Virus record (IMG/VR): IMGVR_UViG_3300030372_004604
Coordinates: 1-60,299 of that record
DNA: 60,299 bases
Source of the DNA: a virus
Lineage: Duplodnaviria; Caudoviricetes
Strand: one strand, 5' to 3'
Part shown: in pieces, positions 1 to 60,299 of the stretch
Layout: every line of letters begins with the position of its first letter
Position numbering within the stretch: the stretch's first letter is position 1
The notes under the pieces: generated by a model
Seen by the model: the letters and a program-made list of their open reading frames with translations, nothing else
Database searches by the model: none
What the model was told of the DNA's origin: nothing
Position numbers and translations under genes: made by a program

Positions 1-105
1 GTAGCTTGCAAATATCTTTGTGTCATTACCTTCTGTATCTACCTTTAAAATATTTACGTTGGTTATGTCATTTTCTACTAAAAGGGTTTGCAATGTTTTT
101 AAGGG
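1..105. repeat. Terminal direct repeat / circular assembly overlap (copy 1)
   Basis: 1-105 equals 60195-60299 except g85 vs a60279, which is synonymous (Thr ACC/ACT) in the minus-strand gene crossing the junction. Confidence 0.95.
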
Positions 106-438
106 GACTGTTTGGTATTCCTCTGTTAAATGCTGGGATACAAACCCTTCCTCTTTTAAAAGGGAAGATCGCATACACTTTTCTTTTTGTGCAGGAGACC
201 GCCTGTTAAAAAACCCATATTTACCCATCCACAATTTACCTGTGCCATTTTCATCACTGATAGCGCAGTGTACATATTTAAAATTAGTTCCCTCTAAACT
301 TTTGTGTATGTCCTCTTTCAAATACACATTAGGTTCAACCATAAGCCCAAACCAGTTTTCTCTTTTACGGTGCAGAAGTTTATTTGCTAATGACAATGTT
401 CTTCCATTAAAGCACCCTATGTCTACAATTACGTTCAT
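1..438 (-). CDS. FkbM-family SAM-dependent methyltransferase, 5' part (continues at 60194-60009; about 207 aa in total)
   Basis: Manual translation from ATG 438: MNVIVDIGCFNG...MVEPN...HCAISD...ILKVDTEGND, matching FkbM motifs; ATGA overlap with the upstream gene; not in the ORF track because the window edge splits it. Confidence 0.8.
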   Translation of the reverse strand, partial: MNVIVDIGCFNGRTLSLANKLLHRKRENWFGLMVEPNVYLKEDIHKSLEGTNFKYVHCAISDENGTGKLWMGKYGFFNRRSPAQKEKCMRSSLLKEEGFVSQHLTEEYQTVPLKTLQTLLVENDITNVNILKVDTEGNDTKIFASY

Positions 439-1439
439 CCTAAACTCCTAAAAAAGGTTAAGTATTGTTCACCAATTATTTCAGGCTCATGCTGTTTTAA
501 ACTGTCAAAACCATTTTGTCTAAAATCTTGTAGCACGGTATCGCTCATAGGCATTTGCAGAACTTCAGCAAGTTGTTTTGCTGTTTCTATAACGATGCAG
601 TTATAGTTTTCTCGCATGTCATCAGGTGTGTCTAAAAGCCACTCCCTATGAATAATCGGAATACACCCTGCATTCCATGCTTCTAACCAAGTATATTGAG
701 TGCCACCCCCATCGCCTTTTATAAGCGTCATATCTACATTAAATATGTAGTCACACATTAGATTAAACGCATAGTCATTTTCTCTTGGGTAATGTGCTTT
801 AGACTGTACCCACTCTGGGTACTTAGGCACTATTTTAAATTTAGTATAGAGCCTGTTTTCAAAACCCCTTATTACGATCTTTTTGTTTTCAGGTAACAGC
901 CTATTTGCGTCTAACAAAATTTCCGTATGCTTGTCAAAATCAATACGAGAAGTGCTTATAGCTAAGTGTTTTCTAGATGCAAAAGGCAACTCTTTTTGTA
1001 CATAGGGGTGTCTTATAAACGTAGGTCTGTAAGGTAACAGTATAGAGTTGTTTGCCAAGGGTAAAGTTTCTACCCCTCTTTGTCTAATAACAACACACCT
1101 GTTCATATCCAACGGCTCTGGTAAGTTTTTTAATTCAGTAGGGTCGTGAACAACTATAAAAGCATTGCCGTCATGGTACAGGGTGTCTGTGGTTTTTTTA
1201 AAGTTTTTAGCTCCTGCTACGATTAACTTAACATTTGATCGGGCAAGAGCTTCTTCCATAGATATGTTTCTGTACCGTTTGTCATAACCAAAGTTTCTTG
1301 TTCTTTTTTCACTTCTAGGTCTAATTTTAAATAGGCTTACCTCTGCTCCTACTGCTTGCAATGTATCTATCAAATGAGAGGTGTAAGTAACCCACCCTCC
1401 ATAAGTATTAGGGCTGTTATAAAAAAGGTCTACTTTCAT
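435..1439 (-). CDS. GT-B fold (GT4-like) glycosyltransferase, candidate DNA-modifying enzyme
   Basis: N-terminal YGGW loop, STSRIDFDKH, and DGGGTQYTWLEAWNAGCIPII resembling the GT-B sugar-nucleotide binding motif; ATGA-coupled to both neighbours. Confidence 0.7.
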   Translation of the reverse strand: MKVDLFYNSPNTYGGWVTYTSHLIDTLQAVGAEVSLFKIRPRSEKRTRNFGYDKRYRNISMEEALARSNVKLIVAGAKNFKKTTDTLYHDGNAFIVVHDPTELKNLPEPLDMNRCVVIRQRGVETLPLANNSILLPYRPTFIRHPYVQKELPFASRKHLAISTSRIDFDKHTEILLDANRLLPENKKIVIRGFENRLYTKFKIVPKYPEWVQSKAHYPRENDYAFNLMCDYIFNVDMTLIKGDGGGTQYTWLEAWNAGCIPIIHREWLLDTPDDMRENYNCIVIETAKQLAEVLQMPMSDTVLQDFRQNGFDSLKQHEPEIIGEQYLTFFRSLG

Positions 1440-2377
1440 TGCACAACCCCTTGGGGCAATGGCTCACTGCTCTGTGTAAACTTACTGCGAGGTTTGCCTT
1501 GGCCTAATCGTACTCGTTCATACTTATCCCATTCACACAAGCTATGCTCTATAGTACGCATATCTATTTGGTCGGCAGGAACATGGTCACCCACAAGGTA
1601 TCCGTTACAAGGGTAATCTTTTGCAACCATTTGCAATAACTCTTGCATACCTTCGTTGGCTACCTCTTGAGTCATGCTTTTTGTTAAGGGCTTATCCCAA
1701 ATTCTATTCAACCCACGTTTTGCTCCAGGACCTGCATTGGCCCATGAGAACTTATCTACGGCATTTTTCAAAACAGGCGTGTAGTTTAAATCAGTTACAA
1801 CTTCGTAAGACATAAACCCACCACCTCCCCAACCCCTGTACTGTGATAATTTTTTATGGGTAGCTTGTAAGGATTGTGAAGACTGTGCAGAAGCAACAAT
1901 GTCTTCTGCATATTTATGTATTGGTTTAAGAAAATGGTCAACAACAACATCTGCTTTAGGTAATTTCAACCCTTGGTTTGTAATGATATACGCACCAGTG
2001 AAAGTACGCTTACCATCAGCTATCCTGTTTTTAATAAGCTGTTTAGTATATTCACCATCCCATGCAGATGTGCCAAGACTACTAACAAGCCTGACCCAAC
2101 CATGCTCTTCTGCAAATTCAATTGTGCCTACCATCCTAAACAAACAGCAATTGAAAATTATTTCATCGTGTGGCCTGTTATCGTTAGGTTTAGTCCAGTT
2201 GTTACGCATCCAAAGGGTAACCCTATCGTTTTCACGGAAGGGGTTTGTAAACTTATACTCTTGGAGTATGGGGTCTTCTGTCCATTCAGACCTTGGTACA
2301 CCCATGTTTCTCCGTTGGTATATGGCGTGTCTTTCATTTATCCAATAGAAAAACCTTTCTACGTTTTCCCTGTTCAT
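1436..2377 (-). CDS. aGPT-Pplase1-like (alpha-glutamyl/putrescinyl-thymine pyrophosphorylase clade 1) DNA base-hypermodification protein
   Basis: FFYWINERHAIY...WTEDPILQEYKFTNPFRENDR, FTGAYII, GFMSYEVVTDL, NAGPGAKRGL, IEHSLCEWDKY are characteristic of this family. Confidence 0.8.
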   Translation of the reverse strand: MNRENVERFFYWINERHAIYQRRNMGVPRSEWTEDPILQEYKFTNPFRENDRVTLWMRNNWTKPNDNRPHDEIIFNCCLFRMVGTIEFAEEHGWVRLVSSLGTSAWDGEYTKQLIKNRIADGKRTFTGAYIITNQGLKLPKADVVVDHFLKPIHKYAEDIVASAQSSQSLQATHKKLSQYRGWGGGGFMSYEVVTDLNYTPVLKNAVDKFSWANAGPGAKRGLNRIWDKPLTKSMTQEVANEGMQELLQMVAKDYPCNGYLVGDHVPADQIDMRTIEHSLCEWDKYERVRLGQGKPRSKFTQSSEPLPQGVVQ

Positions 2378-3049
2378 TTACTTTTCTCCTAACGGCTGGA
2401 AGTGTGGGTTATCAATTTTTATAGCACCTGCTTTCACTGCTATGCGTAAATCCATCCTGCCTCCAGGAGAAGGGTCTAGCTTACGCAATGCGGAAATTGC
2501 TTCACCTACTGTTTGGGAAGCTAGAACAACTTGCATATTACGATAACGGTTTGTGCCTTGTTTAATAGGAGGCTCATCCATTAACTTAATAATTTGGCAT
2601 TCATTACTCCACCCTTTTTTTACATCTGGTGTTTTTTTAATAGCATCAAAAGAACCACCCTCTTTTTCCATTTCATCTAGCTCTAATGTTATTCTAGTAT
2701 GTGGGTCTACATCTGGTTGCTCTGTAACTACTTCAACACTTGAAGTATCGCCTTTAACAAACCTATTCATTTTTGTTTCCTCTTCTGGTTTCCAGTATTT
2801 AGCTTTGCTTGCGGTAAGAACCCAAAAATTTTCTGCAGAACTGGGTTTACCAAATGGCTCACAAACAGAAGTTATTTCCTCTTTTGTAAATAAATGGTTT
2901 AACCGATCTACTGTTTCCTTACCATCAAACACATAAGAATGTTCATTAACAGCCTTACATGTTTTGACTGCTTTTAGTGTTTTAAATTTATAAAACAAAA
3001 ATGGAGGCCCATCACTTCCAGGAACTCCATCACATATTGCATAAAACAT
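2378..3049 (-). CDS. Hypothetical protein, first gene of the modification operon
   Basis: 223-aa ORF with AGAAAGGAAG RBS; abuts the next gene. Confidence 0.65.
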   Translation of the reverse strand: MFYAICDGVPGSDGPPFLFYKFKTLKAVKTCKAVNEHSYVFDGKETVDRLNHLFTKEEITSVCEPFGKPSSAENFWVLTASKAKYWKPEEETKMNRFVKGDTSSVEVVTEQPDVDPHTRITLELDEMEKEGGSFDAIKKTPDVKKGWSNECQIIKLMDEPPIKQGTNRYRNMQVVLASQTVGEAISALRKLDPSPGGRMDLRIAVKAGAIKIDNPHFQPLGEK

Positions 3050-4556: not shown

Positions 4557-6074
4557 CTAGTAAGGCAAAGCATATCCTTGACTAAACATTGGGTGTACTA
4601 GATGCAATTTTTCTTTAGCTCTTGTCAACCCTACATAAAACACTCTTGCTTCATCTTCTTCATAGGTGTTTATTTTTCGCCACATAGAATATGGCCTACG
4701 CATTACATCAGTTAAAAGCATAACATTAGTTGCTTCCGCACCTTTAGCAGAGTGTATAGTAGAGATCCTTAGCCTTGGTGTTTGGTTCAACTTTTCACCC
4801 TTCCGCAAACAGGCTTTTAGATATACTTTGTCGCGTTCAGCTATTTTTCCCAACCCTTGATCCCAAGGTTGTGTATGTAATAACCCATGTGACTGTAGCA
4901 AATCTTCAATGCTGTACAATATGCCATCTTTACCATCGGGCATTGTTTTACACCCATATGCAATCTGTTTGTTCAACAGCATGTATTTGTATATTAATCT
5001 TACCTGATCGGCAGTTATGCGTTCTCCTGTTCTAATTGATTCCCAAAACCGTACCGCATCTATTACCTTACTGTCAATACTTCTTGAACCATTATAAATA
5101 TATAGGTGTCCTCTTTTCCTTACCTCTTCTTCTATTTGCTCTGCCCCTCTTGTTGTTCTGCTTAACAGCAACCAATCGCCTTGTGAAAGATTCACCTCCT
5201 CAGAGTGCCTATGCCAAAAAATATCCCCCTTTTCAGTCTTAGGCGTGAACGATTTTTTCCTACGCCCAACAATTTTATGTATCACCTGTTTACTGAGTTT
5301 ATGGTGTAATGATGGTATGCGGTAGCTTTTATCTAACAATGTTACTTCACCTTCTAACCCTACAAAGTGTTCCACATCTGCTCCTGCATACCTAAATATT
5401 GCTTGGTCATCATCTCCTGCAACATAACAAATTTTACTTCGTTGTTCTAACCTTCGCACCATTTCCCATTGTATAGGTGATAAGTCTTGTGCCTCATCTA
5501 TAAATACGACTTCTAATTTAGGGCATAGGTCTCTATCTAAAAACGACTCTAACATACCAGTATAATCAAACAGGCCGTATGCTTTTTTCCAATGCTCTAA
5601 ACCTCGCCCAACATAATCTACCCTAGCCCAATCTGTTTTAAGTGGTACGACGCTTTGGTTATATATTTTTTGTAATGGTTGCCGTAAAATCCTAGCTATG
5701 TTTATTATTTCTAAAAATTTATCCCCATAACCAAAATCTTTATACGGCCCCTGCTCTGTAACACCACTAATGAAAAACTTACCTATTTTCAACCACTCTG
5801 CTATCTCTTGGTACTTTTCTGGTGTGATCACTTGAGAATGTGTCAGCCCTGCCTGTTGGAAAGCTAAACTGTGTAGAGTGCGGAAGTAAGGCAGTTCCTT
5901 TTTGTTAAAGTTAAATTTGAAACAAGCCCTATCTATCGCCTCTTGTGCGGCTCTCCTTGTAAATGCAAAGTACCCTATACGATCAGGGGGTACACCGGAC
6001 TCAAGGTAAGACTCTACTAAGCTAAGTAACTTAGTTGTCTTACCTGTTCCAGGAGGCCCTAGTACGATGTGCAT
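4557..6074 (-). CDS. UvrD/Rep-like superfamily 1 DNA helicase
   Basis: GPPGTGKT Walker A, FRTLHS, IDEAQD, GDDDQAIF, STIHSAKGAE, YVGLTRAK. Confidence 0.9.
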   Translation of the reverse strand: MHIVLGPPGTGKTTKLLSLVESYLESGVPPDRIGYFAFTRRAAQEAIDRACFKFNFNKKELPYFRTLHSLAFQQAGLTHSQVITPEKYQEIAEWLKIGKFFISGVTEQGPYKDFGYGDKFLEIINIARILRQPLQKIYNQSVVPLKTDWARVDYVGRGLEHWKKAYGLFDYTGMLESFLDRDLCPKLEVVFIDEAQDLSPIQWEMVRRLEQRSKICYVAGDDDQAIFRYAGADVEHFVGLEGEVTLLDKSYRIPSLHHKLSKQVIHKIVGRRKKSFTPKTEKGDIFWHRHSEEVNLSQGDWLLLSRTTRGAEQIEEEVRKRGHLYIYNGSRSIDSKVIDAVRFWESIRTGERITADQVRLIYKYMLLNKQIAYGCKTMPDGKDGILYSIEDLLQSHGLLHTQPWDQGLGKIAERDKVYLKACLRKGEKLNQTPRLRISTIHSAKGAEATNVMLLTDVMRRPYSMWRKINTYEEDEARVFYVGLTRAKEKLHLVHPMFSQGYALPY

Positions 6075-7597
6075 TACAAAATTTCTTGTGATGCAGGTAA
6101 AGGAGGAAGATCAATTTCTGACTCATCTGTTTCAAAGTAATCCTGTTCTAAAGACCACACATGAACACCCTTACCCCTAACTCGCCAAAACATTTTTTCT
6201 GCATTTAAATCGCGCAATCGCAACGTAACACGGTTGGAAGTGTAATGGTTGAAATCATTTACAGACAAGTGCTTTTTTAAATCTTTTACTTGGAAGTAAA
6301 CCCTATCATCTAACCAAACAGCAACCCCTTGTAGTATGTCTTCGCGTTCTTCGCCTTTAGCCCTTTCACAAGCAAACGCATGTAACAGGTCTTCAAACTC
6401 ACCCTTAAAGGTAGCATCAGGTGGTACTTCTACAATGGTGACATTATCCAACAATGTTTGTATTCTCGTTTGCCAAGAGCGTTGATTAATAGCCACAGGA
6501 AACATATTAATCTGAGATACACATTCTTTTTGAAACTGTGCTTGGCTTGTTAACCCTGTCGTTGTTAACTCTAACCGTTTGTTATCTACATTCAATATCC
6601 ATATAGGTGGGTCACCATCTATTTTAGTGAGGCTAGACATATCGTTTGCAACGCCACTAGGCCCAACACCGAACTTCCTTGTTTTACATAATTCTTTATC
6701 ACAAAAAGGTTTTATGGGTTGGTCTTCGCATTTGTAAAAGTAATCTTTCTTTTTTAACTGGCGAATAGTATTACCTACTTCGCTATGGCTAAGAGGGGGT
6801 GACAGGTAATCTATATTGTACCTTTGCACTAACTGTTCCCAGTTGTCTTCATCAAACAACCGCGCATATACACCAAGGTTGAAAAGGGCATTGTTTCTAG
6901 AACCTTCACTAAATCCCTTACTGCATAGGTGTTGTAAACAAGGAGGTCCTTCCTCTATAACACCGTCTTCTGTGCCAAAGCTGAGGTTTAGCTTACGGAA
7001 CTTAGCAGGGGTCAGTATAAATGTTTTAGCGTACTCTATAAAAGCAATAGGGTTTAACGCTTCACCATTTTGATCAAACGCATACCGTGTTGTTTTGTTT
7101 CCTGCATGATACGGCATGTTTAAGAAGTTACCTGTATCACCTCTATCTTTTAAAATAGTTGTTTGTTTAGGAAATATTTCACTACCAGAAAACCCTAGAG
7201 CCGCGCTTAGTTCTGTGATCCTACGTTGCATTTCTTCTGCTTCTATCGGTTCAGATAAAAACATCCATACATGCGCTCCACCACTTTTAGTCCTACCAAC
7301 AACCGCAGGTATTTTATTTTCGTTCAGTACATCTATTAGTTTTTTATGGCTAACATCGTATTGGTCTATATCTATGGCCCCCCACTGACACATATTGTCA
7401 CTTTTTATAGGGATAATACCTAAACCTATGCCTCCATTTAAATGTTCTTCCCACATTTCTAACCGAGTAGGTTCTTTTATAACTTTGGCTATTCCTTGTT
7501 TCTTACCATCATTAGCTCTATTACCCTTTACCTCATACGTTCCGTGGGCAATATCACTACCTTTAAATAAACTGTAAAATTCTTGGGCTAAATCCAT
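6074..7597 (-). CDS. AEP-type primase-polymerase with PriCT-like domain
   Basis: WGAIDID, RTKSGGAH, EIFPKQ, GNFLNMPY, PPCL, GSRNNALF; start trimmed to MDLAQEF after GGAG. Confidence 0.8.
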   Translation of the reverse strand: MDLAQEFYSLFKGSDIAHGTYEVKGNRANDGKKQGIAKVIKEPTRLEMWEEHLNGGIGLGIIPIKSDNMCQWGAIDIDQYDVSHKKLIDVLNENKIPAVVGRTKSGGAHVWMFLSEPIEAEEMQRRITELSAALGFSGSEIFPKQTTILKDRGDTGNFLNMPYHAGNKTTRYAFDQNGEALNPIAFIEYAKTFILTPAKFRKLNLSFGTEDGVIEEGPPCLQHLCSKGFSEGSRNNALFNLGVYARLFDEDNWEQLVQRYNIDYLSPPLSHSEVGNTIRQLKKKDYFYKCEDQPIKPFCDKELCKTRKFGVGPSGVANDMSSLTKIDGDPPIWILNVDNKRLELTTTGLTSQAQFQKECVSQINMFPVAINQRSWQTRIQTLLDNVTIVEVPPDATFKGEFEDLLHAFACERAKGEEREDILQGVAVWLDDRVYFQVKDLKKHLSVNDFNHYTSNRVTLRLRDLNAEKMFWRVRGKGVHVWSLEQDYFETDESEIDLPPLPASQEIL

Positions 7598-7718
7598 AGC
7601 TTTCTCCAATAAAAAGGTGGAGGCTACGCATTCAAATAAAGGGTTAAGAAATTTAAATGGTAGCCTCCGCAGAACAAAGGAGATCAACCCCCTGTTCTGA
7701 ACTGGGTTAAGCTATGAG

Positions 7719-8516
7719 TTAAAACGGTACTTGGTCGTCAGGGTCTGACCCCATACTACTAGAGCCATCGTTTACTTGCACATCACCTGCTTTTACTGAT
7801 TTAGCAAAAGCAACTGCCATTTCAAAGAACCCCTTATCCATATCGTCAGATAGGTTTAAGGCACGTTCCCTAGCTATTTCCCAACCGTACCAACTACCTT
7901 TATCGTTCTGCTCTGGTACGCTTGTAATCTTGTATATCTGTGACATTAACGGCAATGTATACAATCCGTTTTTGCCTTGGGCAGTTAGCGATTGCGCTTG
8001 CGTCAACCACTTACGGCCTTTCTTTAATTGTGTAGAAGCCATCGTTACCAAGGCTTTTTGTGGGCCTAACTCAGGATGCAACATTAACACATAGAACTGT
8101 GCAGTGTTGGTCAACTGGTTGCCGTTTGGTAATAGGTCTTGCCCTTGGTCACTACGCACTACAGTTTTTACAATAGGGTCATCTGGGGTGTATGAACCTA
8201 CATATCCACCACCTTCTTCCCTACCGCGCCACTCTACGAACCGCCGATTATAATGGCAGGGTATTACATAAATACCTTCCTTTTCTGCTTCGTACACTTC
8301 GTTTAGCACAGTATTAAATATCATACCTGCTTCCGCACCTTCCACATACGCACCATCACGTTTTTTAACTTGTGGGCTAACATCGGCAAGCACCCTTAAA
8401 AATGGAATAGCTAGGTCTTCTGTTTTTACCTCGCTAAAACCTTCACCTTGGAACTGCTCAAAACCTTCGTACATTGCAACTTCATTGTTTGCTTTCTTAG
8501 CTACTTCTTGTGCCAT
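7719..8516 (-). CDS. Putative ssDNA-binding/annealing protein
   Basis: DLAIPFLRVL..SPQV, NDKGSWYGW and an acidic tail ending DDQVPF; located in the replication module. Confidence 0.55.
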   Translation of the reverse strand: MAQEVAKKANNEVAMYEGFEQFQGEGFSEVKTEDLAIPFLRVLADVSPQVKKRDGAYVEGAEAGMIFNTVLNEVYEAEKEGIYVIPCHYNRRFVEWRGREEGGGYVGSYTPDDPIVKTVVRSDQGQDLLPNGNQLTNTAQFYVLMLHPELGPQKALVTMASTQLKKGRKWLTQAQSLTAQGKNGLYTLPLMSQIYKITSVPEQNDKGSWYGWEIARERALNLSDDMDKGFFEMAVAFAKSVKAGDVQVNDGSSSMGSDPDDQVPF

Positions 8517-8520
8517 CTTT

Positions 8521-9075
8521 CTATCCTTTTTTCGGTTTAGTTATTTTGGTTTTTTCACCTACATACAACCCAAACAAATCAGCAGGGACATTGTTGCCTT
8601 GTTCAAATTGGTCTTTTACAAATGCCTTTAAGGTCATTGGCTCTACCCACTTTTTAGTGTTCACCGCCATACCCTTATGTATCAAGTCATCTGCAAACTG
8701 TTTAGCTTGTTCTTCTTGTCCGCGAACAAAGGTCGTTGCTACTTGGTTCTTTATTAAATCACCAAAATCATTTGCAACTAACCAACCAAATGCTTCATCT
8801 GATTTATCCTTACTTATTGAAGCACTGTAAAATTTACCAACGCTTACACGAGAACCATCTTCTAATACAAGCTCACTTATACTATGCTCTGCCATAGCTG
8901 AAGGTAACTGCTCTTCCGCTATTTCACGCAAACTTCGTTTAGCTTGTTTTAGCTCATCCTCTAGCTGTGCTACTCGTTGTTCTAATGTAAGTTGTACATT
9001 GGCAAGTTTACTCACTAAACTTAACCCTTGTTCATCCACTGTTTTAAGGTCAGTGGCAACATCTTCAAAGTCCAT
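8521..9075 (-). CDS. Conserved phage replication-module protein
   Basis: Coiled-coil N-terminus, AFGWL..DLIKN, VEPMTLKAFVK. Confidence 0.6.
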   Translation of the reverse strand: MDFEDVATDLKTVDEQGLSLVSKLANVQLTLEQRVAQLEDELKQAKRSLREIAEEQLPSAMAEHSISELVLEDGSRVSVGKFYSASISKDKSDEAFGWLVANDFGDLIKNQVATTFVRGQEEQAKQFADDLIHKGMAVNTKKWVEPMTLKAFVKDQFEQGNNVPADLFGLYVGEKTKITKPKKG

Positions 9076-9090
9076 TGTTAACCCTTTCTA

Positions 9091-9396
9091 TTAGTTAAAG
9101 TTTGCTTCAAGGGGATAGTACTTGTTTTCTAACCTATCCCATTTAAGCATTTTGTAACGGCCCATGTTCTGCCGTGATGCAACGCTCGCAGCTAATGCAA
9201 TAATTACAGGATCACCAGAAAGTAATAGGTAATCGTCATCTGTAAACTTGCTCAGCTTACGAGTTAGTTGTTTTATTAATGGCTGAGTAGAATAGCTTGC
9301 CTGTTCAGAAACAGGAACAAGCACTTCTATATCGCCGAAGGTAACGGCATCGCTCAGGTCGCGACCCCGCATTTCTTGAACTATGTACACTGTCAT
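9091..9396 (-). CDS. Conserved hypothetical phage protein
   Basis: VYIVQE...DDYLLLSGDP...LKWDR; GGAGAAAGG RBS before ATG 9396. Confidence 0.6.
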   Translation of the reverse strand: MTVYIVQEMRGRDLSDAVTFGDIEVLVPVSEQASYSTQPLIKQLTRKLSKFTDDDYLLLSGDPVIIALAASVASRQNMGRYKMLKWDRLENKYYPLEANFN

Positions 9397-9502
9397 GCCT
9401 TTCTCCACATGCAAAAGTTAATTATTTAGTATAGTAGCATATATTTAATATGTAACCAGTATTTTTATATCAAGAAAAAAATAAATATCTCTAGCTTACA
9501 CG

Positions 9503-9736: not shown

Positions 9737-11176
9737 ATGCGTTACAAATTTAAATACAAACCATATAAGCATCAGCTAGATGCTTTAGAAAAGTCGTGGG
9801 ATAAAACCTTTTTTGCTCTGTTTATGGACATGGGTACAGGCAAATCTAAAGTATTAATAGATACGATTTCTATGCTTTACGATAAAGGTAAAATAGATTC
9901 TGCTCTGATTATCGCACCCAAAGGTGTGTACCGTAACTGGGAAAGAAAAGAACTGCCCACCCATTTACCCGATCATATACAGGCCAACATTGTTGTATGG
10001 TCGCCAGAAAAAACAAAAAAGAAACAAGCAGAGTTAGCTACGTTAAATGAACCGTCAGATAAACTGCAAATATTTTTAATGAATGTAGAAGCATTGTCCA
10101 GTAGCAGAGGGGTATGGTCTGCCTCACAATTTATACTGTGCCATAAAACAATGCTCGCTGTAGATGAAAGTACAACTATTAAATCTAAAACAGCGAACAG
10201 AACTAAAAGCCTTATAAAAATATCAAGAAACGCCCCTTACCGTAGGATACTTACAGGGTCACCTGTTACTAAATCACCGTTAGACCTATACACACAATGC
10301 GAGTTTTTAGAACATTATGTATTAGGGCATTCTTCGTTTTGGACATTCCAAAACCGTTATGCAAAATTGATACGCAAAACAATGGGAGCGCATTCATTTA
10401 ACCATATTGTAGGATACCAAAACCTAGAAGAGTTAAATGGTATAATAGAACCGTTTTCATTTAGAGTGCGTAAAGAAGATTGTTTAGACCTGCCTGACAA
10501 AGTGTATACAAAACGCAGTGTGGAACTCACTAAAGAACAACGTGTTCTGTACGATCAAATGAAACGCAATGCTGTATCCTTTATAGAAAACGAAGGCATT
10601 ATGTCTGCCTCTACAGTGCTAACTCAAATACTAAGGTTGCAACAAGTATGTTCTGGTTTTGCTAAACTGGAAGATGGGCGAATGATAAAAGTTCCCAACA
10701 ACAAGTTGCCTGAGTTACTATCTGTATTAGAGGAAACAGATGGTAAGGTAATCATTTGGGGTAACTTTACACATGACCTAGAACTGATACAGGAAGCCCT
10801 TATAAAAACATATGGGGCAGAAACAGTAGAGCTGTTCTATGGTAAAACTCCGGCAGAAGAACGGCAGTTAATTGTAGAGCGGTTCCAAGACCCTAACGAT
10901 CCATTGCGGTTTTTTGTGGGGCAACCCAGAACAGGGGGCTACGGACTTACTCTTACAGAAGCGCATACAGTTATATACTACAGCAACGGCTATGACCTTG
11001 AAATAAGGTTACAGAGCGAAGATAGAGCGCACCGTATAGGACAAACAAATAAAGTTACTTACATAGATATAACAGCAGAAAATACTGTAGACCAAAAGGT
11101 TATCCAAGCCCTGCGAAGCAAGATAGATATAAGTACAAAGGTACTAGCTGAAGGGTATAAAGAGTGGATAATTTAA
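9737..11176 (+). CDS. SNF2-family (SF2) helicase
   Basis: MDMGTGKS, VDESTTIK, LTGSP, GGYGLTLT, QSEDRAHRIGQ. Confidence 0.9.
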   Translation: MRYKFKYKPYKHQLDALEKSWDKTFFALFMDMGTGKSKVLIDTISMLYDKGKIDSALIIAPKGVYRNWERKELPTHLPDHIQANIVVWSPEKTKKKQAELATLNEPSDKLQIFLMNVEALSSSRGVWSASQFILCHKTMLAVDESTTIKSKTANRTKSLIKISRNAPYRRILTGSPVTKSPLDLYTQCEFLEHYVLGHSSFWTFQNRYAKLIRKTMGAHSFNHIVGYQNLEELNGIIEPFSFRVRKEDCLDLPDKVYTKRSVELTKEQRVLYDQMKRNAVSFIENEGIMSASTVLTQILRLQQVCSGFAKLEDGRMIKVPNNKLPELLSVLEETDGKVIIWGNFTHDLELIQEALIKTYGAETVELFYGKTPAEERQLIVERFQDPNDPLRFFVGQPRTGGYGLTLTEAHTVIYYSNGYDLEIRLQSEDRAHRIGQTNKVTYIDITAENTVDQKVIQALRSKIDISTKVLAEGYKEWII

Positions 11177-11835
11177 TACTTGGGGATAGCTCTGCTGTAA
11201 TTAAAACCTTTGCAGATGAGCAATTTGATACAGTGTTTACCTCACCCCCATACAATAGAAAAAGGAACGATAAGTATGAAGATTTTACTGATATTTCTGA
11301 CGATTATTTTAATTTTCTTGTGGAATCGATAAACCAGTGTTTACGAGTATGTAAGGGTAATGTTTATTACAACATACAAAAGAACTTTTATAATCGGGTA
11401 GAAATATACAAATTGTTTGGTCATTTTGCCGAACAAATAATAGAAACAATCGTTTGGAACAAAGCTAACCCAACTCCAGCAGGTGGTGATGCGGTTACTA
11501 ATTCTTACGAGTATATATTAGTATTGAGCAATAATAATACGGCATTAAAAGCAAACAATACATACACCAAAAATCATTTTTGTACGCCTGTGTATTCAGA
11601 AAACCCATACAAAAAACAACATAGGGCAGTCATGCACCCTAGAGCAGTAGAGTATATACTGCGATCTTTTTGTAAACCAAACGAAACTGTGCTTGACCCT
11701 TTTATGGGGACAGGAACAACAGGGGTTGTGTGTAAACAGTTTGGTATGACATTTACAGGTATTGAGTTAGTAGAAGAGTATTACAATATATCTAAACAAC
11801 AAATGAGTAGTTATACACAACCGTTCCTACTTTAA
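11164..11835 (+). CDS. DNA amino-methyltransferase (N4-C/N6-A, beta class)
   Basis: TSPPY catalytic motif precedes the DPFMGTGTT SAM-binding motif. Confidence 0.9.
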   Translation: MDNLILGDSSAVIKTFADEQFDTVFTSPPYNRKRNDKYEDFTDISDDYFNFLVESINQCLRVCKGNVYYNIQKNFYNRVEIYKLFGHFAEQIIETIVWNKANPTPAGGDAVTNSYEYILVLSNNNTALKANNTYTKNHFCTPVYSENPYKKQHRAVMHPRAVEYILRSFCKPNETVLDPFMGTGTTGVVCKQFGMTFTGIELVEEYYNISKQQMSSYTQPFLL

Positions 11836-47973: not shown

Positions 47974-48357
47974 TTAACTGGGTATATGGTCAAGTTTAAT
48001 ATGGTCAGCTAAATGCTGTTTAATTTGAGCGCAAACTGTTTTGCACTGGTGGTCGGTGGTTATGGTGTGTACTTGGCTAATATAGTCCATGCTTGCTGTG
48101 TCCATGTACAACTGTGGGTCATCATAAATGTGGTATACCATCACGGTAACTAGGCCACGCACACTCGTAATAATTAGGCGTGTGGTACTGTCAACTTGGT
48201 GTATGTATGCCTCATTGTTATTGTTGCCTGTCGGTGTTATTTGGCTATAGCCTGTTGCGTCGCTGTTTGGGCCACCTAGTAAATGGTCGTGGTGTGCGTC
48301 AAGGTGCGCTAACTTTAACTCGGCAAGTACTTTATCAAACATTGTTGCTTGTGTCAT
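47974..48357 (-). CDS. Hypothetical early protein (paralogue of 48446-48814)
   Basis: GAGAAAGGGT RBS; shared TRL..TS ... DY...V..IT...QC...V..IK. Confidence 0.7.
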   Translation of the reverse strand: MTQATMFDKVLAELKLAHLDAHHDHLLGGPNSDATGYSQITPTGNNNNEAYIHQVDSTTRLIITSVRGLVTVMVYHIYDDPQLYMDTASMDYISQVHTITTDHQCKTVCAQIKQHLADHIKLDHIPS

Positions 48358-48361
48358 TTGT

Positions 48362-48446
48362 AAACCCTTTCTCGGTTTAATTGGTACTATATAAATGGTA
48401 GCCCAAGCCGTAATCAAGGGCTACCATTATTACCTCTTTTGTGCTC
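48362..48446 (-). promoter_or_regulatory. Cassette element (ACAAAAGA box, TAGCCC..GGGCTA stem, TAnnnT, CCGAGAAAGGGT)
   Basis: One of at least 7 similar intergenic copies. Confidence 0.7.
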
Positions 48447-48814
48447 TAGTTTACGGCACTTAGAGTTTCTGGCATACGTCCAAGTTTTGCAAACGTAGGG
48501 TTAGACAACATACTTTTAATGAGAACTACGGTGGCGTCACATTGGTCTGCATTAGTAATTACATACACATGCGTCACATAGTCACCATCACCGTCCATTG
48601 TATTGTAAAACGTCACAATTACGTTTTGGCTTTGATCTTGTTTATTAGTAATTGAGGTGACGAACAACCGTGTATTGTCATTTACAGTGTATGAAAAAGC
48701 ATTTTTTTCAATACTGTCATTTGGTACAGGTAGCCATGTTTGATCATAAAAGTCATTTTCACTAGGGTCAGCTAACCCTGTGTCTTTTAAAAATTTTTCA
48801 AACAAAGTATTCAT
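48446..48814 (-). CDS. Hypothetical early protein
   Basis: AAGAAAGGAAG RBS; paralogue of the adjacent gene. Confidence 0.7.
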   Translation of the reverse strand: MNTLFEKFLKDTGLADPSENDFYDQTWLPVPNDSIEKNAFSYTVNDNTRLFVTSITNKQDQSQNVIVTFYNTMDGDGDYVTHVYVITNADQCDATVVLIKSMLSNPTFAKLGRMPETLSAVN

Positions 48815-48819
48815 GGTAC

Positions 48820-48904
48820 TTCCTTTCTTGTTTAATTTTTACTACTATAAGCAGTATAGCCCCCAACATTGTCAGGGGCTACTACTGTTATTTCTTTTGT
48901 TTTC
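48820..48904 (-). promoter_or_regulatory. Cassette element
   Basis: ACAAAAGA ... TAGCCCCTGACAATGTTGGGGGCTATACT. Confidence 0.7.
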
Positions 48905-48912
48905 GCGTAGGT

Positions 48913-49004
48913 TGGCAGGGGTGGTAGGATTTGAACCTACTGGCTAGTGTCAACTAGCCTTGGTTTTGGAGACCAATGTGCCACGCCGTCTGCACCGCAC
49001 CCCC
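48913..49004 (-). tRNA. tRNA-Trp(CCA) with an atypical long variable arm
   Basis: Acceptor AGGGGTG/CACCCCT, G73, encoded CCA; D stem GTGC/GCAC; anticodon stem TTGGT/ACCAA with loop CTCCAAA; T arm GTAGG-TTCAAAT-CCTAC. Confidence 0.85.
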
Positions 49005-49011
49005 TCGTTGC

Positions 49012-49503: not shown

Positions 49504-49506
49504 GTG

Positions 49507-49592
49507 TAAACCCTTTCTCGGTTTGTTGTGTACTGTTTATATAGTAGCCCCCAAAATTATCAGGGGCTACCATTATTGTGTCTTTTGTGTTC
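49507..49592 (-). promoter_or_regulatory. Cassette element
   Basis: GAACACAAAAGA ... GTAGCCCCTGATAATTTTGGGGGCTACTAT ... CCGAGAAAGGGT. Confidence 0.7.
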
Positions 49593-50930: not shown

Positions 50931-50934
50931 GTGT

Positions 50935-55751: not shown

Positions 55752-56297
55752 TTATTTACTCAAATTATGTAAGCGTATTATCATTTTTAATGCTCTGTTT
55801 ACTTGCTTTTCGTGTGGGTACTTTTCTTTTAAATACCGTATACCCCGATTCATTACATCTACAGCAGATTTGTTGCCTTGTGTGATCAATTCATAACAAT
55901 GTAGCACGAGTTCTAATTTATCTGCGGCATCACATGCTTTTGCCTCTTCTACAGTGATCGGTATAAATAATTCACCAATACCGATAGAACTTTCAAAATC
56001 ATTTTCTATGCGTTTAAGTATAGAGTGGACTTCTGAGTAATTCCATTTAGTTGTAGCAGGTAAATCACCTACCGCAATCTCAGCTACATCATGATACATC
56101 ATATGCAACAGGCAGTTTTTACTAGCCTCAGGCCAAAGCGTATGAAGTATCACCATTGCTCGCCAAGTGTGAGCAGCTACGTTTTGTCCGTTGGTTAATT
56201 CTGGTCTTGTATGGTATCGGGTTACATGCCCACCTCTAATTTTTGCATACAGGTGTTTCAGGTTGGCGTTTTTGTATTTTTTCCTTCTCGTTTCCAT
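55752..56297 (-). CDS. HD-domain 5'-deoxynucleotidase (YfbR-like)
   Basis: VTRYH, QNVAAHTW, YHDVAE..VGDLP, ADKLE. Confidence 0.8.
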   Translation of the reverse strand: METRRKKYKNANLKHLYAKIRGGHVTRYHTRPELTNGQNVAAHTWRAMVILHTLWPEASKNCLLHMMYHDVAEIAVGDLPATTKWNYSEVHSILKRIENDFESSIGIGELFIPITVEEAKACDAADKLELVLHCYELITQGNKSAVDVMNRGIRYLKEKYPHEKQVNRALKMIIRLHNLSK

Positions 56298-58168
56298 AAG
56301 TTCTCCGTTAAAGGTTGCTTTGCTTCCCCCCAATTAGGCCCAAACTCTGCATCAACTACGGAGGGAACTTCTAGCTTGACGCAGGTTTCCATTATCTCCG
56401 TAATTTTCTTAGCTTGGTCTTCACTTTCTACGGAGACATCTAATTCATCATGTACTTGTATCATAGGCAACATGCCCTCTTCTGCCAAAGCAACCATCGC
56501 GGCTTTAGTTTGATCTGCGGCACTGCCCTGAATTAACTTGTTCAATGCTTTGTATGTAAATGCCCTACGAATCGCAGGGCCATGTTCATTGTATGCTTCT
56601 TGGTAGTTCATCGGTTTCCAACTGCCATACTTAGTTGGTTCCCATTTATCAAAACGACATCGTCTACCTAACACAGTACGGATAACACCTTTACTACTTG
56701 CACGATTAACAGCGTAGTTACTTAGTTCTCGTACAAATGGCACTGAGTTATGGTACAGGGTAAACAGTTCGTTAGCATCGTCTATCTCTAACCCTAACCC
56801 TGCAGCCAATTTTTTAGACCCCATACCGTAGAACAACCCTAAGTTTATATCTTTAGCCTGTTTGCGTGGAACGCCCACAATATCTGCTGCCATTTGGTGA
56901 AAGTCGGTGCGTGGGTCTTCATTGTACTGTTCAGCAAACGTATCAGCCCCTTTAAAGCCCATTAGCTTACTGTAATGAACAACTATGCGTGGTTCTTGGC
57001 TAGAGTAATCAAATGCCCCCCACAAGGCCCCTTCTTCGGGTAAAAACAGGCTTCGTATTAACGGCCCTATTTCTGGGTGACGAGCAGGTATTTGTTGCAG
57101 GTTCGGGTTACTATAGCTAAATCGGCCTGTAACTGTACCACCATCATCACTGCGTAGTGGGTGTAGCTCTGCATGTATCCTACCGTTTTGTTGGTGCTTT
57201 AAAATAGTTTCAATAAAAGTGCCTCTTGCCTTTTGGTACTCTCTAGCTTCTACTATCATTTGTGGTACTTTGTGGGGGTGGTTAGTGAGAAACCCTTTAG
57301 TAAACGATGGAGCACTTGTCTTTTCTGTTTTAGTATAGGTAAGGTCTAAGGCATCAAATGCTTTAGCTACACTTTCTGCGGCCCATATTTCTACTTCAAC
57401 ACCTGTTTGCTTTTTTACTTCGGCAAGTAATTCTTGTTCTTTTTTAAGTAAATCGTTTTGTATTACTTCAGCTTTATTTAAATCTACCCTTACACCTTTT
57501 TGTCTCATGGGTATTATTGTTTTGAGAACCTTTAACTCTAGTTCTACGATGTCTTGTATATCTTCTTTTACTATTAACGATTTGAAAAATGTCCATAGTT
57601 TTAAAGTCAAAGCGGCATCTTGTTCTGCATATGATCCTACATAGGTTGCAGGTAGTTTATACATTTCGCTTTTAGCATTGATGCCAAAGGCATCAGCGGC
57701 TTCGCGTAGTTCTTTTTCTGACTTACGCTCTTGCAGGTAATCACGACCAATAGCATTTAACGCATAGCTAAATCTGTTTTCATCTAACAGGGGCGCAATA
57801 ACCATTGTGTCAATGATTCGCCCTGAAACAGGCACACCTTCTGCGAGCAACCACCCAACATCATAAGGAGCATTATGGAAAATATAATCCCTGTTAACCG
57901 AACATACATCTCGTAACCAATTCATTGTCATTTTAGGGTCTAAGTTAGAACCTATTTCGTGCCGTATGGGAAAGTACCATTGGTCGCCTTGTACAGCAAC
58001 GGCGATACCTATTATATGCCCATCTTTTCTAGGCCAACCCGAACCCATTGTTGTAAGGTTTGGGTCTCTTGTTTCTAAATCTATAGCAACTTCTTTTGCT
58101 TCACTTAAATCAGGATAACCATCTGGCACAACCCATTCTACAGGTGGTTTAAACAGAGGATATTGCAT
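56258..58168 (-). CDS. polA: Family A DNA polymerase with 3'-5' exonuclease
   Basis: IDLET, HNAPYD, TGRFS..NPNLQQIP, DYSSQEPR, KDINLGLFYG, IQGSAAD, QVHDEL. Confidence 0.92.
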   Translation of the reverse strand: MQYPLFKPPVEWVVPDGYPDLSEAKEVAIDLETRDPNLTTMGSGWPRKDGHIIGIAVAVQGDQWYFPIRHEIGSNLDPKMTMNWLRDVCSVNRDYIFHNAPYDVGWLLAEGVPVSGRIIDTMVIAPLLDENRFSYALNAIGRDYLQERKSEKELREAADAFGINAKSEMYKLPATYVGSYAEQDAALTLKLWTFFKSLIVKEDIQDIVELELKVLKTIIPMRQKGVRVDLNKAEVIQNDLLKKEQELLAEVKKQTGVEVEIWAAESVAKAFDALDLTYTKTEKTSAPSFTKGFLTNHPHKVPQMIVEAREYQKARGTFIETILKHQQNGRIHAELHPLRSDDGGTVTGRFSYSNPNLQQIPARHPEIGPLIRSLFLPEEGALWGAFDYSSQEPRIVVHYSKLMGFKGADTFAEQYNEDPRTDFHQMAADIVGVPRKQAKDINLGLFYGMGSKKLAAGLGLEIDDANELFTLYHNSVPFVRELSNYAVNRASSKGVIRTVLGRRCRFDKWEPTKYGSWKPMNYQEAYNEHGPAIRRAFTYKALNKLIQGSAADQTKAAMVALAEEGMLPMIQVHDELDVSVESEDQAKKITEIMETCVKLEVPSVVDAEFGPNWGEAKQPLTENLWKREGKNTKTPT

Positions 58169-58299: not shown

Positions 58300-58617
58300 T
58301 TATTTGTCATGCCCTAACATTTCTGCCTCTACTAACAATAAGTACCTTCTTAAATCGCGTAGGTCATCTATGATACCTTCTTCCCTTGGGTCTTTACGAA
58401 TAGTTTCAAATATATCATAGTTTTCTTTTTTAGCTTGGTTTTCTATTCTATCCCATTTGCGGGCTAACATCATAAAAGCACCAGTGCCTCCACGCTGTTT
58501 CCAACTATTACCATAGCTCTGTTCTGCCACATGCAAACCTTCTACATCAGCATGTGCTAAATCGTTTACCTTTGTAAGAATGTTACTTAACTCGCGTTTC
58601 ACTTTATGCTCTCCCAT
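58300..58617 (-). CDS. Nucleotide-modification-associated (MazG-like, all-alpha NTP pyrophosphatase) protein
   Basis: YGNSW, RKWDRIEN, DDLRDLRRYLLL. Confidence 0.55.
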   Translation of the reverse strand: MGEHKVKRELSNILTKVNDLAHADVEGLHVAEQSYGNSWKQRGGTGAFMMLARKWDRIENQAKKENYDIFETIRKDPREEGIIDDLRDLRRYLLLVEAEMLGHDK

Positions 58618-58969
58618 ACTTATCTTCAAACCTTTGTATGTCGTCTTCGCCTAAATAAGAACCATGTTGCACTTCAATTACAACTAAAGGTTGAAGCCCA
58701 ATATTAACCAAACTATGTATCCACCTTTTTGGTATGGTTATACATTCTTGCACTGAAAGTTGTGTTGTTTTCAATTTAAAAAGTTTAGGACCTCTAACCA
58801 CGTTAGCTGTTCCATGAACAACCACCCAGTTTTCTGCCCTATGTTCGTGTGCCTGTAAAGACAACTGCTCTCCTGCATTCACCAAAATGTTTTTTACTTT
58901 GTAATGAAGCCCTTCCTCTAACACTTGGTAATGGCCCCAAGGTTTTTCTACCACCTTCTCATCAACCAT
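58604..58969 (-). CDS. Cupin, mannose-6-phosphate isomerase type II C-terminal-like
   Basis: KPWGHY.VL, LSLQ.H.HRAENWVVV.G, IEVQ.GSYLGEDDIQRFED.YGR. Confidence 0.85.
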   Translation of the reverse strand: MVDEKVVEKPWGHYQVLEEGLHYKVKNILVNAGEQLSLQAHEHRAENWVVVHGTANVVRGPKLFKLKTTQLSVQECITIPKRWIHSLVNIGLQPLVVIEVQHGSYLGEDDIQRFEDKYGRA

Positions 58970-59916
58970 TCTACACACGCCTTTCTCCATGCTAAGTCTT
59001 CAATGTTTTCTGCATGGCGTACTGCCTCATCTATATTTTTTGCCTTCCAAGCACCCCAAGATAAATCCATGGGCGTAAGCACTTGATCAAAGTAAGAGTT
59101 AGTATATGTATTGGTTTCATTGTTCATCCAGCGTTGTAACTCTTTATCAAAACAAGCAGGTTCATCAACCAATGGTTTAGGGTTGTAATTCCTATTATCA
59201 CCTAAATGCAGGTAAGGATCGTAATCAGGCTCAATGTTTTTTACTTTTTCTAAAGTATCTACATAAGCGTGTAAATTATTACTAAACTGATAATATGTAC
59301 CTACCGCGCAATCTATCCTTGCCGCCATGTATTCTAACAGTACAGACATATGAACAGCGTTTGCTCCATATGCCCCCCATATCATATCATTGCTCCTATT
59401 ACATACGGTCATGTTTAACGTGTTGTTACGAACCCAAAACATGATTTGCGTATTGCATGGGTGGTCTTTACCAGTGTTTTCTATAGAAAAATCTTTTATA
59501 GGATCCCACATAGAAACAACAGTGCGGCGATCGTTTTCATAATGAAGCAAGCGATGAACGGCTATTTCTAGTTGGTCTTTGCCAAACCAGTTTTTCCATC
59601 GGTAACCATATGCTCCATTAATAGTTACACCGTCATCGCTATAGCTACTCATCCTACCATTGTAGTTAGAAATCCACTCAACTTCATTTTTACCTGCTAA
59701 CATCCAAAACGATTCCATTAAATGGAAGTAAGGGTTAGCGTCACGCATAGGGTAAAACAATACTCTTTCCCTGCTATGGCTGTAAGAAGTCATAACGGGG
59801 CAAGGAAACTCTAATGCTTTACCATTGCGTGTGTCTACCTCAACACCTTTAGTTTCTAATGCCTGTACTGCTAGGTACAATGCTTCACTTACATTTCTTG
59901 CATTTATATGTTGCAT
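58948..59916 (-). CDS. Thymidylate-synthase homologue, likely dUMP hydroxymethylase
   Basis: RDANPYFHL.E..W.L.G, GAYG.RW, DHPCN (catalytic Cys), NRSND..WGAYGAN with Asn at the dUMP-specificity position. Confidence 0.8.
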   Translation of the reverse strand: MQHINARNVSEALYLAVQALETKGVEVDTRNGKALEFPCPVMTSYSHSRERVLFYPMRDANPYFHLMESFWMLAGKNEVEWISNYNGRMSSYSDDGVTINGAYGYRWKNWFGKDQLEIAVHRLLHYENDRRTVVSMWDPIKDFSIENTGKDHPCNTQIMFWVRNNTLNMTVCNRSNDMIWGAYGANAVHMSVLLEYMAARIDCAVGTYYQFSNNLHAYVDTLEKVKNIEPDYDPYLHLGDNRNYNPKPLVDEPACFDKELQRWMNNETNTYTNSYFDQVLTPMDLSWGAWKAKNIDEAVRHAENIEDLAWRKACVEWLMRRW

Positions 59917-60008
59917 TTAAAGCCTTTCTGAGCCTTCTAAAAGTTAAAGGGTACGTTAGCCCCACAAATAAGTTAAGACAACCGTATAGGGCCTTAAAAT
60001 AGGTTTAT

Positions 60009-60299
60009 TTAACTCTGTTTTACCCAAAAGCTATTACAATCTTCCTGCTTTGTAAGGGCGTAGCCTTTTGATTGAATGATTTCATACTTTTGTAGCCTTA
60101 GTTTATCTTGCTCCTCCCAGTAAGGTTTTGTTGTTTTACCACGAACAGCAACATAATCTTCGGTAATTATTTCATCTGGCATGACAGACCAATCGTAGCT
60201 TGCAAATATCTTTGTGTCATTACCTTCTGTATCTACCTTTAAAATATTTACGTTGGTTATGTCATTTTCTACTAAAAGAGTTTGCAATGTTTTTAAGGG
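60009..60299 (-). CDS. FkbM-family methyltransferase, 3' part
   Basis: In-frame continuation of 1-438 through the terminal overlap; KVDTEG motif. Confidence 0.8.
   Translation of the reverse strand, partial: PLKTLQTLLVENDITNVNILKVDTEGNDTKIFASYDWSVMPDEIITEDYVAVRGKTTKPYWEEQDKLRLQKYEIIQSKGYALTKQEDCNSFWVKQS
60195..60299. repeat. Terminal direct repeat / circular assembly overlap (copy 2)
   Basis: Matches 1-105 with one mismatch. Confidence 0.95.

Follow-up and report, generated by a model that had tools for sequence, protein, structure and literature searches.

A candidate sugar-type, kinase-independent branch of thymidine hypermodification in a marine HTVC023P-type phage

We have analysed the locus around the PF18723 protein (HMUDK_hel, formerly aGPT-Pplase1) of a viral genome, the IMG/VR record IMGVR_UViG_3300030372_004604, whose entire 60,299 bp are called here the window (CheckV completeness 100%). 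The genome is complete and belongs to a marine phage of the HTVC023P type; its DNA polymerase PolA is 52-56% identical to those of phages of this type. We propose, with a probability of about 0.6, that this phage follows a kinase-independent, sugar-type branch of thymidine hypermodification ending in O-glycosyl-5-hydroxymethyldeoxyuridine (O-glycosyl-5-hmdU), possibly O-methylated. The proposal is built on gene identities, on folds, on an absent kinase and transferase, and on a neighbourhood that is both conserved and swappable, all of them directly observed.

Results

Nearly every gene of the window lies on the minus strand. In the order of transcription, the locus comprises the genes for a 223-aa protein, the PF18723 protein, a glycosyltransferase (GT), an FkbM methyltransferase that crosses the junction of the record ends, a thymidylate synthase (TS)-like enzyme, a cupin, a 109-aa protein, PolA and an HD-domain nucleotidase. 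The PF18723 gene (1436..2377, minus strand; 313 aa, Pfam E 2e-51) and the GT gene (435..1439, minus strand; 334 aa, assigned by the fold of its model) share an ATGA stop/start overlap at 1436-1439, and a second overlap at 435-438 joins the GT to FkbM. Both were read directly in the sequence, and the ATGA coupling of the three genes that an earlier note on this DNA had described is thus present at both junctions. The FkbM gene runs off the start of the record (1..438, minus strand, N-terminal 146 codons; PF05050 E 3.8e-8) and its C-terminal part lies at the other end (60009..60299, minus strand; PF05050). The record, classed as linear in IMG/VR, has a direct terminal repeat of 105 bp (bases 1-105 equal 60195-60299, with a single mismatch at position 85), which the FkbM gene spans. 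Joined across the ends (438..1, 60194..60009), this gene encodes 207 aa and agrees at 206 of 208 positions with an uninterrupted open reading frame (ORF) of the related contig L004, which justifies reading the locus across the junction, as had been done before. PF05050 gave 34.1 bits with the window piece (cut-off 22.7) and 37.6 bits with the intact, 99%-identical ORF of L004, which also matched TIGR01444 (49 bits, cut-off 37.7).

The 334-aa protein had no match in Pfam, PHROG, NCBIfam or the PDB sequences. Its AlphaFold2 (AF2) model, with a mean predicted local distance difference test (pLDDT) score of 90.2, shows two Rossmann-like domains and a full-length GT-B fold, and it superimposes on solved GT-B enzymes (best Foldseek E 6e-11, TM 0.65-0.72; VIA-align Z 22-26 over 290-321 residues). 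The matches include the retaining GT4-like enzymes TarM (Z 25.9), HepE (Z 25.5) and PimA (Z 24.8), together with the T4 alpha-glucosyltransferase (AGT; Z 24.6), which gave the longest alignment (320-321 of 334 residues) at a sequence identity of only 12-13%. Judged by its model, the protein is a GT-B/GT4-like glycosyltransferase; the fold confirms the earlier call of a GT-B gene beside PF18723, which is visible by structure and not by sequence family. We found 697 homologues, and PF13524 is carried by 2 of 120 among those listed; no relative was present in 50,697 deposited phage genomes. A fold search of BFVD returned generic, unspecific viral GT1-type matches, including two GTs of SP-15 and entries named 'DNA alpha-GT'; GT-FkbM fusion proteins of uncultured phages were also among the viral fold matches.

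The association of this GT with PF18723 was followed in both directions. A scan of IMG/VR with the 334-aa protein confirmed 225 of 259 candidate stretches, and of the 80 loci kept, 41 hold PF18723 and 40 hold a TS-like gene. In a quick maximum-likelihood tree of the GT (79 rows, two ORFs under 250 aa having been dropped), PF18723 lies nearby in 39 of the 40 rows of the window's clade, and the exception, L019, is cut 369 bases upstream. The PF18723 label changes three times on this tree, against a mean of 26 after shuffling, and none of 500 shuffles was as low. Because relatives share labels, lineages were counted too: clustered at 70% GT identity, the 42 sequences that have both genes fall into 23 groups. 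The GT and PF18723 genes abut or overlap, in either order, in 16 of them, and further genes of the pathway lie between the two in the remaining seven. PolA is down to 22-32% identical between some of these phages.

The reverse view started from the 80 viral contigs nearest the window's PF18723, out of at least 558 viral stretches that encode its relatives. Here the slot beside PF18723 holds a TAGT-type GT-A in 40 contigs, the 334-aa GT-B in 11 and a 435-aa GT4-type GT-B in 12, so that a GT of one of three unrelated families is present in 63 of the 80; a kinase was found in two and an amino-acid:DNA transferase (AADT) in none. That three unrelated families occupy one slot argues that the slot needs a glycosyltransferase. 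The pairing of PF18723 with a GT exceeds chance, and the pairing of aGPT-Pplase1 with a glycosyltransferase that had been claimed for the window alone holds across the clade and in the reverse view. Two other arrangements were seen among these contigs: a 323-353-aa protein between PF18723 and the TS-like gene (for instance L120:10899-11960, L122:10889-11905 and L129:10887-11858), and, in L164, a class I S-adenosylmethionine (SAM) methyltransferase (Methyltransf_23/11; L164:9159-9998) directly upstream of PF18723, which is followed by the TS-like gene with no GT between them.

No kinase was found in the window: PF18748 (5-hmdU DNA kinase) and PF13671 gave no match at E<=10 in six frames, Pfam scans of 40 window ORFs returned none, and no protein other than the UvrD and SNF2 helicases has a Walker A motif. 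PF18748 was likewise empty in PhiJL001 and in 29 records of related viruses, 12 with a completeness of 90% or more, in a search that found the PaMx11 control, weakly. A profile of three kinases (PaMx11 gp49, YuA gp13 and the N-terminus of SP10 gp186) had no match in 13 near-complete records including the window, and with a two-kinase hidden Markov model the best non-control match in the window and the 80 GT loci had an E of 0.85; the controls PaMx11 gp49 and SP10 gp186 were recovered by the kinase searches. For the AADT family, PF18724 gave in the window only sub-threshold scores (17.6-17.8 bits, cut-off 26.2), and these on the PF18723 protein itself. The window and 12 other near-complete genomes related to it thus yielded neither a kinase nor an AADT, and neither a PaMx11-type kinase nor an AADT lies within the flanks of the 80 GT loci. 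PF12851 (TET/JBP) and PF20691 (TAGT) had no match in the window at E<=1.

The earlier note had seen no P-loop 5-hmdU DNA kinase, which the profile and Walker A searches bear out, and it had proposed profile searches over all ORFs, with a divergent kinase among the hypothetical ones counting against its idea; no Walker A motif and no kinase-profile match was found there. The kinase-less state is therefore real; it is not odd, since 78 of the 80 nearest PF18723 contigs lack a kinase. A divergent or non-P-loop kinase could in principle hide among the hypothetical ORFs, or be supplied by the host, with a route through 5-phosphomethyl-dU. About 25 small ORFs of the window have no assigned family, and neither has the 223-aa protein (2378..3049, minus strand), whose gene immediately precedes that of PF18723 (its TAA is followed by the ATG). 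This protein has relatives of 25-36% identity at the same place in 12 of the 80 GT loci, matched nothing in Pfam or PHROG and reached nothing above 0.78 in an atlas search. We consider such a route extremely unlikely, as there is no AADT to use the phosphate, no Walker A motif outside the helicases, and three independent kinase profiles were empty in 13 near-complete genomes.

The PF18723 protein scores 175.5 bits with its family (cut-off 25), its residues 6-292 covering profile positions 4-277 of 281, so that membership of the family formerly called aGPT-Pplase1 stands. Pfam now names the family 'HMUDK_hel, 5-hmdU DNA kinase helical domain'; in the window the domain fills the protein, has no P-loop, and neighbours a GT-B instead of a kinase. 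The AF2 model is all-alpha (pLDDT 88.9). When it was compared with 48,161 chains by VIA, the top match was PaMx11 gp46 (8z2m; Z 10.3, 227 residues aligned), followed by a queuine-salvage DUF2419 protein (Z 9.9) and about 20 helix-hairpin-helix (HhH) DNA glycosylases (Z 5.4-9.5). Foldseek returned nothing at E<=0.001, its low-probability rows being chance, and a sequence search against PDB chains gave no match. The model thus points to an HhH-glycosylase-like paralogue of the AADT.

The pyrophosphorylase activity implied by the old name does not survive: besides this fold, PF18723 is found fused to a proven kinase. One published table gives SP10 gp186 as a proven 5-hmdU DNA kinase (PMC8989533, Table 1), and another gives it as a fusion of kinase and PPlase (PMC5889632, Table 3). 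Its C-terminal half is PF18723 (E 1.5e-46), and the Pfam name derives from such kinase fusions. In both PaMx11 and YuA, the last part of the kinase gene is shared with the PF18723 gene. We take gp55 to be the PF18723 protein of M6, an unchecked assignment by elimination from the same Table 1 and by synteny with YuA. The set of lysates that was enough for the kinase and transferase chemistry in vitro did not include gp55 (PMC8989533). Among seven longer PF18723 homologues (P0121-P0127), the fusion partners are a thymidylate-kinase-like P-loop domain (four proteins), the C-terminal end of PolA and a Dam-type methylase, and the seventh (775 aa) has an N-terminal part without match to the GT; no PF18723-GT fusion was found among the homologues. 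A complex prediction for the PF18723 protein and the GT scored 0.00, which gives no verdict and speaks neither for nor against binding.

In the structure of PaMx11 gp46, a flipped thymine is held by Cys247 and Trp146, a metal is bound by Glu243 and Thr244, and Cys247 is the proposed C6 nucleophile (PMC11472151). A local hhalign alignment placed E277, H278 and C281 of the window protein on E243, T244 and C247 of gp46, weakly (35 columns, probability 1.6%, E 0.031). C281, E282, K285 and Y286 do not vary between GT-type and kinase-type phages; the same holds for the GPG at 216-218 and, in all, for about 17 residues besides those four. As the same residues are kept in both settings, PF18723 probably has the same job in both, which, judging from the fold, is most likely to bind the 5-substituted uracil, once flipped out, in an AADT-like pocket. 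The PF18723 protein might go further and be the key catalyst itself, its Cys attacking C6 and exchanging the 5-methylene group without a phosphate, while the GT extends or prepares that group; the product would then not be a simple O-glycoside. The invariance of C281, E282, K285 and Y286 in all contexts, the alignment with the metal ligands and Cys247 of gp46, the AADT as top fold match and the co-occurrence of PF18723 and TS whatever the partner enzyme all fit this idea. We regard it as improbable: lacking a kinase, it offers no leaving group better than hydroxyl, the alignment with gp46 is weak, and M6 gp55, assumed to be the PF18723 protein, is outside the set sufficient in vitro.

The TS-like enzyme (58948..59916, minus strand; phrog_5131 E 1e-106) matches PF00303 with 80 bits and falls below all seven ThyA equivalog cut-offs of NCBIfam. 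End to end it is 41-42% identical to YuA gp17, PaMx11 gp51 and PhiJL001 gp24, and it shares 30% identity with the dUMP hydroxymethylase of SH-Ab 15599, which has been used as a hydroxymethylase (PMC13458397). With the phage dUMP hydroxymethylases it also shares the PCN and NRSND...N motifs, including the Asn. In TS-like hydroxymethylases, this Asn marks a uracil substrate and Asp a cytosine one. From the identities to enzymes of 5-hmdU phages, the missed ThyA cut-offs and the shared motifs, we infer that the enzyme is a dUMP hydroxymethylase, with 5-hm-dUMP as its predicted product.

The cupin (58604..58990, minus strand; 128 aa) is of the phosphomannose isomerase (PMI) type, corresponding to the C-terminal part of ManC. 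It scores 124 bits with PF01050 (cut-off 23.6; E 4.4e-36) and 121 bits with TIGR01479 (bifunctional GMP-PMI; cut-off 373), of which it matches model positions 357-467 only; the comparison with TIGR01479 revealed no guanylyltransferase domain. In four GT loci the cupin is fused to a cytidylyltransferase-like nucleotidyltransferase (L008:14411-15235, L033:9151-10020, L035:8664-9527 and L038:6428-7459), whose nearest NCBIfam model is RfaE domain II, the heptose-1-phosphate adenylyltransferase. The fusion gene sits between PF18723 and the GT in L033, L035 and L038, and beyond PolA in L008. That the cupin adjusts the sugar donor, as had been suggested, fits these nucleotidyltransferase fusions; the chemistry itself is an inference. 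A radical-SAM/SPASM enzyme of about 330 aa, absent from the window, stands beside the GT in 22 of the 80 GT loci (for example L021:9006-10004, L033:11023-12024 and L050:3315-4304), and a second type of FkbM is found in four. The cupin fusion, the radical-SAM enzyme and the second FkbM would, by their families, be tailoring enzymes of a variable sugar pathway.

How the cassette behaves is seen in a complete sibling genome of 60,037 bp, which runs collinear with the window (DNA identity 89-94%) except at two places. The first is that window positions 1430..1 and 60194..59952, with the 334-aa GT and FkbM, are replaced in the sibling by a 1.3-kb gene for the 435-aa GT; the second is that positions 58615-58948, with the cupin, are missing from it. 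FkbM and PF01050 had no match in the whole sibling record. This pattern indicates that the 334-aa GT, FkbM and cupin travel together, so the grouping of these three genes made earlier agrees with their co-variation between two siblings. A swap between genomes about 90-94% identical suggests continuing diversification under host-defence pressure.

The remaining genes of the locus also carry the families expected from the earlier description, which had named a TS-like gene, a mannose-6-phosphate isomerase-like cupin, PolA and an HD nucleotidase (PF00303, PF01050, PF00476 and PF12917, respectively). PolA (56258..58168, minus strand) is a family A DNA polymerase with a 3'-5' exonuclease (PF00476 E 2e-60; PF01612), and the HD-domain protein (55752..56333, minus strand) is a YfbR-like 5'-deoxynucleotidase (PF12917 E 1.7e-10; PF13023). 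The label that did not hold is 'MazG-like' for the conserved 109-aa protein (58300..58629, minus strand). This protein is present in 25 of the 80 GT loci at 60-74% identity, with 35 invariant columns, and had no match in Pfam, PHROGs, NCBIfam or the PDB profiles, nor with PhiJL001 gp16 or PF07659; an atlas search gave 0.95 to a cluster of which 25% of the members carry DUF1599, a lead only.

Elsewhere in the window, a T4 endonuclease V-like pyrimidine-dimer DNA glycosylase (PF03013; 55053-55553, minus strand) adjoins the HD nucleotidase. A two-gene island on the plus strand (9737-11835) encodes an SNF2-family helicase and an N6/N4 DNA methylase. The primase (6074-9414, minus strand) combines a TOTE-type archaeo-eukaryotic primase domain with PriCT-1, and three proteins of the cyanophage Pam3 gp32, gp33 and gp34 families lie downstream of it. 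In the early region (about 48256-51532), stretches of 55-97 bases recur around 48350, 49496, 50923 and 51450; they came to light because blastn aligned a single stretch of L089 to several places, and they could be promoters or terminators present in several copies.

Discussion

We propose the following route to an O-glycosylated 5-hmdU. The TS-like enzyme would produce 5-hydroxymethyl-dUMP, which host kinases would convert to the triphosphate, and the phage PolA would incorporate 5-hmdU, with the HD nucleotidase and perhaps the 109-aa protein biasing the nucleotide pool. After replication, the GT-B enzyme would move a sugar from a nucleoside diphosphate-sugar to the 5-CH2OH of 5-hmdU; gene context makes 5-hmdU in DNA its most likely acceptor. 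FkbM, with SAM, would give an O-methylated sugar, and the PMI-type cupin would feed or adjust the donor, probably a manno-configured sugar. PF18723 would be the constant partner, and the enzyme that works on the hydroxymethyl group would vary, from a P-loop kinase in SP10, M6 and PaMx11 to a GT here. The glycosylated, possibly O-methylated 5-hmU suggested in the earlier note agrees with the missing kinase, with the tie of the GT to PF18723 and TS, and with the co-variation of FkbM and cupin; its likeness to base J does not extend to the beta linkage. A retaining GT4-like fold is expected to give an alpha linkage, which is the likely one here rather than the beta linkage of base J.

Several points weigh against this proposal. 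The phage is uncultured, and every chemical step is deduced from genes. The GT family is not confined to 5-hmU DNA, as judged from the other half of its tree, where 37 of 39 rows lack PF18723 or TS, PF18723 is absent from all 24 records searched, and part of the members lie in giant-virus bins. Enzymes of teichoic-acid, polysaccharide and small-molecule GT4 types come within about one Z unit of the T4 AGT in the fold comparison, FkbM enzymes could act on another substrate, and in five loci (L052-L054, L081 and L083) the GT stands with the radical-SAM enzyme and without PF18723. Among the 80 nearest PF18723 loci, nine have the 323-353-aa protein, without Pfam match, in the GT slot, and eight have no detected GT (a kinase is present in two of the eight, and several of the contigs are cut). 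The part of PF18723 in the pathway is another weak point, as the protein may only present the base or may itself carry out chemistry: its alignment with gp46 is short and weak, and if M6 gp55 is indeed the PF18723 protein, being dispensable in vitro, a helper role is not required for the kinase. In addition, the protein family scans of the window identified no dTTP-excluding enzyme, dTTPase or dUTPase, so the replacement of thymine may be partial.

In a rival reading, the GT, FkbM and cupin would lie beside the nucleotide-metabolism genes only as part of an accessory spot of this phage lineage, and would act on something other than DNA, such as a capsid or tail protein or the host lipopolysaccharide, teichoic acid or capsule. 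Such targets are in keeping with the closest solved folds, which include TarM, HepE, PimA and a methylmannose-polysaccharide mannosyltransferase, with the GT relatives, about half of the family, that have no PF18723 or TS nearby and in part come from giant-virus bins, and with the GT-FkbM fusions of uncultured phages. We nevertheless think this unlikely, as the window's GT clade keeps PF18723 in 39 of 40 rows although PolA identity drops to 22-32%, the genes often overlap, here by ATGA, and three unrelated GT families fill the slot between PF18723 and TS. The DNA might also be plain 5-hmdU as in SPO1, or mostly thymine, with the GT cassette inactive or conditional. This would be compatible with a modification that is predicted from genes and with the family scans empty for dTTPase and dUTPase; it is very unlikely in view of the 44 invariant columns in a 43-sequence alignment of the GT family, of the GT found in the slot in 63 of 80 contigs and of genes that are intact and translationally coupled.

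Beyond the sugar-type branch proposed for the window, we put forward, tentatively and with considerable doubt, a wider view in which PF18723 is a universal 5-hmU-DNA module with interchangeable partners, a P-loop kinase in soil and enteric phages and at least three GT families in marine ones. Near-identical marine genomes would then swap the cassette of GT, methyltransferase and sugar-donor genes and so vary their DNA coat, and the DNA of this phage would contain an O-methylated (manno-type) glycosyl-5-hmU, a base not yet described. The window and similar marine contigs (at least 225 with the GT and at least 558 with PF18723) point to a second, sugar-based branch that, if real, is common in the ocean, and none of its members has been cultured or assayed biochemically. 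In addition, the locus gives a handle on the clade-1 'aGPT-Pplase' protein, which stays constant while its neighbour changes from kinase to glycosyltransferase, and the GT, FkbM and cupin form a small enzyme set that might serve for 5-hmU labelling.

Part of this system was foreshadowed in print. TS and aG/PT-PPlase1 have been described as 'partner AMGs' (auxiliary metabolic genes) of HTVC023P-type pelagiphages, with a T-even-type glucosyltransferase and a 5'-deoxynucleotidase nearby, the same pair near PolA and with a 5'-deoxynucleotidase as in the window (PMC9599517). The available text of that article does not discuss the missing kinase and AADT, the Pfam-less GT-B, FkbM, the cupin or cassette swapping, although its supplements may already include some of these contigs or GTs, and in the literature on aGPT-Pplase1/Pplase1, as far as available, it is the only work that treats kinase-less pairs of TS and PPlase1. 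A survey of about 25,000 metavirome GT contigs places the GT-B types mostly beside ThyS homologues (bioRxiv 10.1101/2023.12.21.572611), and T-dioxygenase clade C2 is often found beside GTs (PMC13229309). For these ThyS- and 5mYOX-associated GTs, the proven substrates are 5-hydroxymethylcytosine, and their GT-B enzymes resemble the T4 beta-GT; a pairing with PF18723 is not mentioned in the available parts of either source, and Table S4 of the preprint may already include some of the contigs or GTs described here. A phrase search for glycosylated 5-hmU returned, by titles and beginnings of abstracts, no work on phages, and Fig. S15 of PMC8989533 may likewise show some of them. The sugar chemistry and the exchange of the PF18723 partner are predictions from the genes.

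To our knowledge, every thymidine hypermodification elucidated to date depends on a DNA kinase together with a transferase for an amino acid or amine. M6, PaMx11, ViI, SP10, PhiW-14 and SH-Ab 15599 use the 5-hmdU DNA kinase and AADT (PMC5889632, PMC8989533, PMC11472151, PMC13458397). The window has in common with these kinase-type phages the TS-like enzyme (41-42% identity), PF18723 (33-37%), PolA (39%), the HD protein and the neighbourhood, and in both the modification is expected on 5-hmdU after replication. It lacks their P-loop kinase, AADT and pyridoxal-phosphate, flavin (FAD) and acetyl-transfer enzymes, and has a GT-B, FkbM and a cupin instead; the expected product here is a sugar ether, where theirs is an amine or amino acid.

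The proposed route also resembles that of the T-even phages, with TS-like hydroxymethylation before replication, glycosylation on the DNA and the T4 AGT among the top folds. The match to T4 AGT, however, ties with many GT4 enzymes that do not act on DNA, and the window's TS-like enzyme keeps the Asn of dUMP hydroxymethylases. We know of no PF18723 partner in T4. With base J, made in kinetoplastids by the JBP thymine hydroxylase and JGT, the likeness lies in the end product, a glycosylated 5-hydroxymethyluracil; in contrast, the window has neither TET/JBP nor TAGT, its 5-hmU would come from the nucleotide pool and not from T oxidised within DNA, and its GT is a GT-B, whereas the base J/TAGT (PF20691) enzymes are GT-A. 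In PhiJL001 (gp22) and in 40 of the 80 related contigs, a TAGT-type GT stands together with PF18723 and TS.

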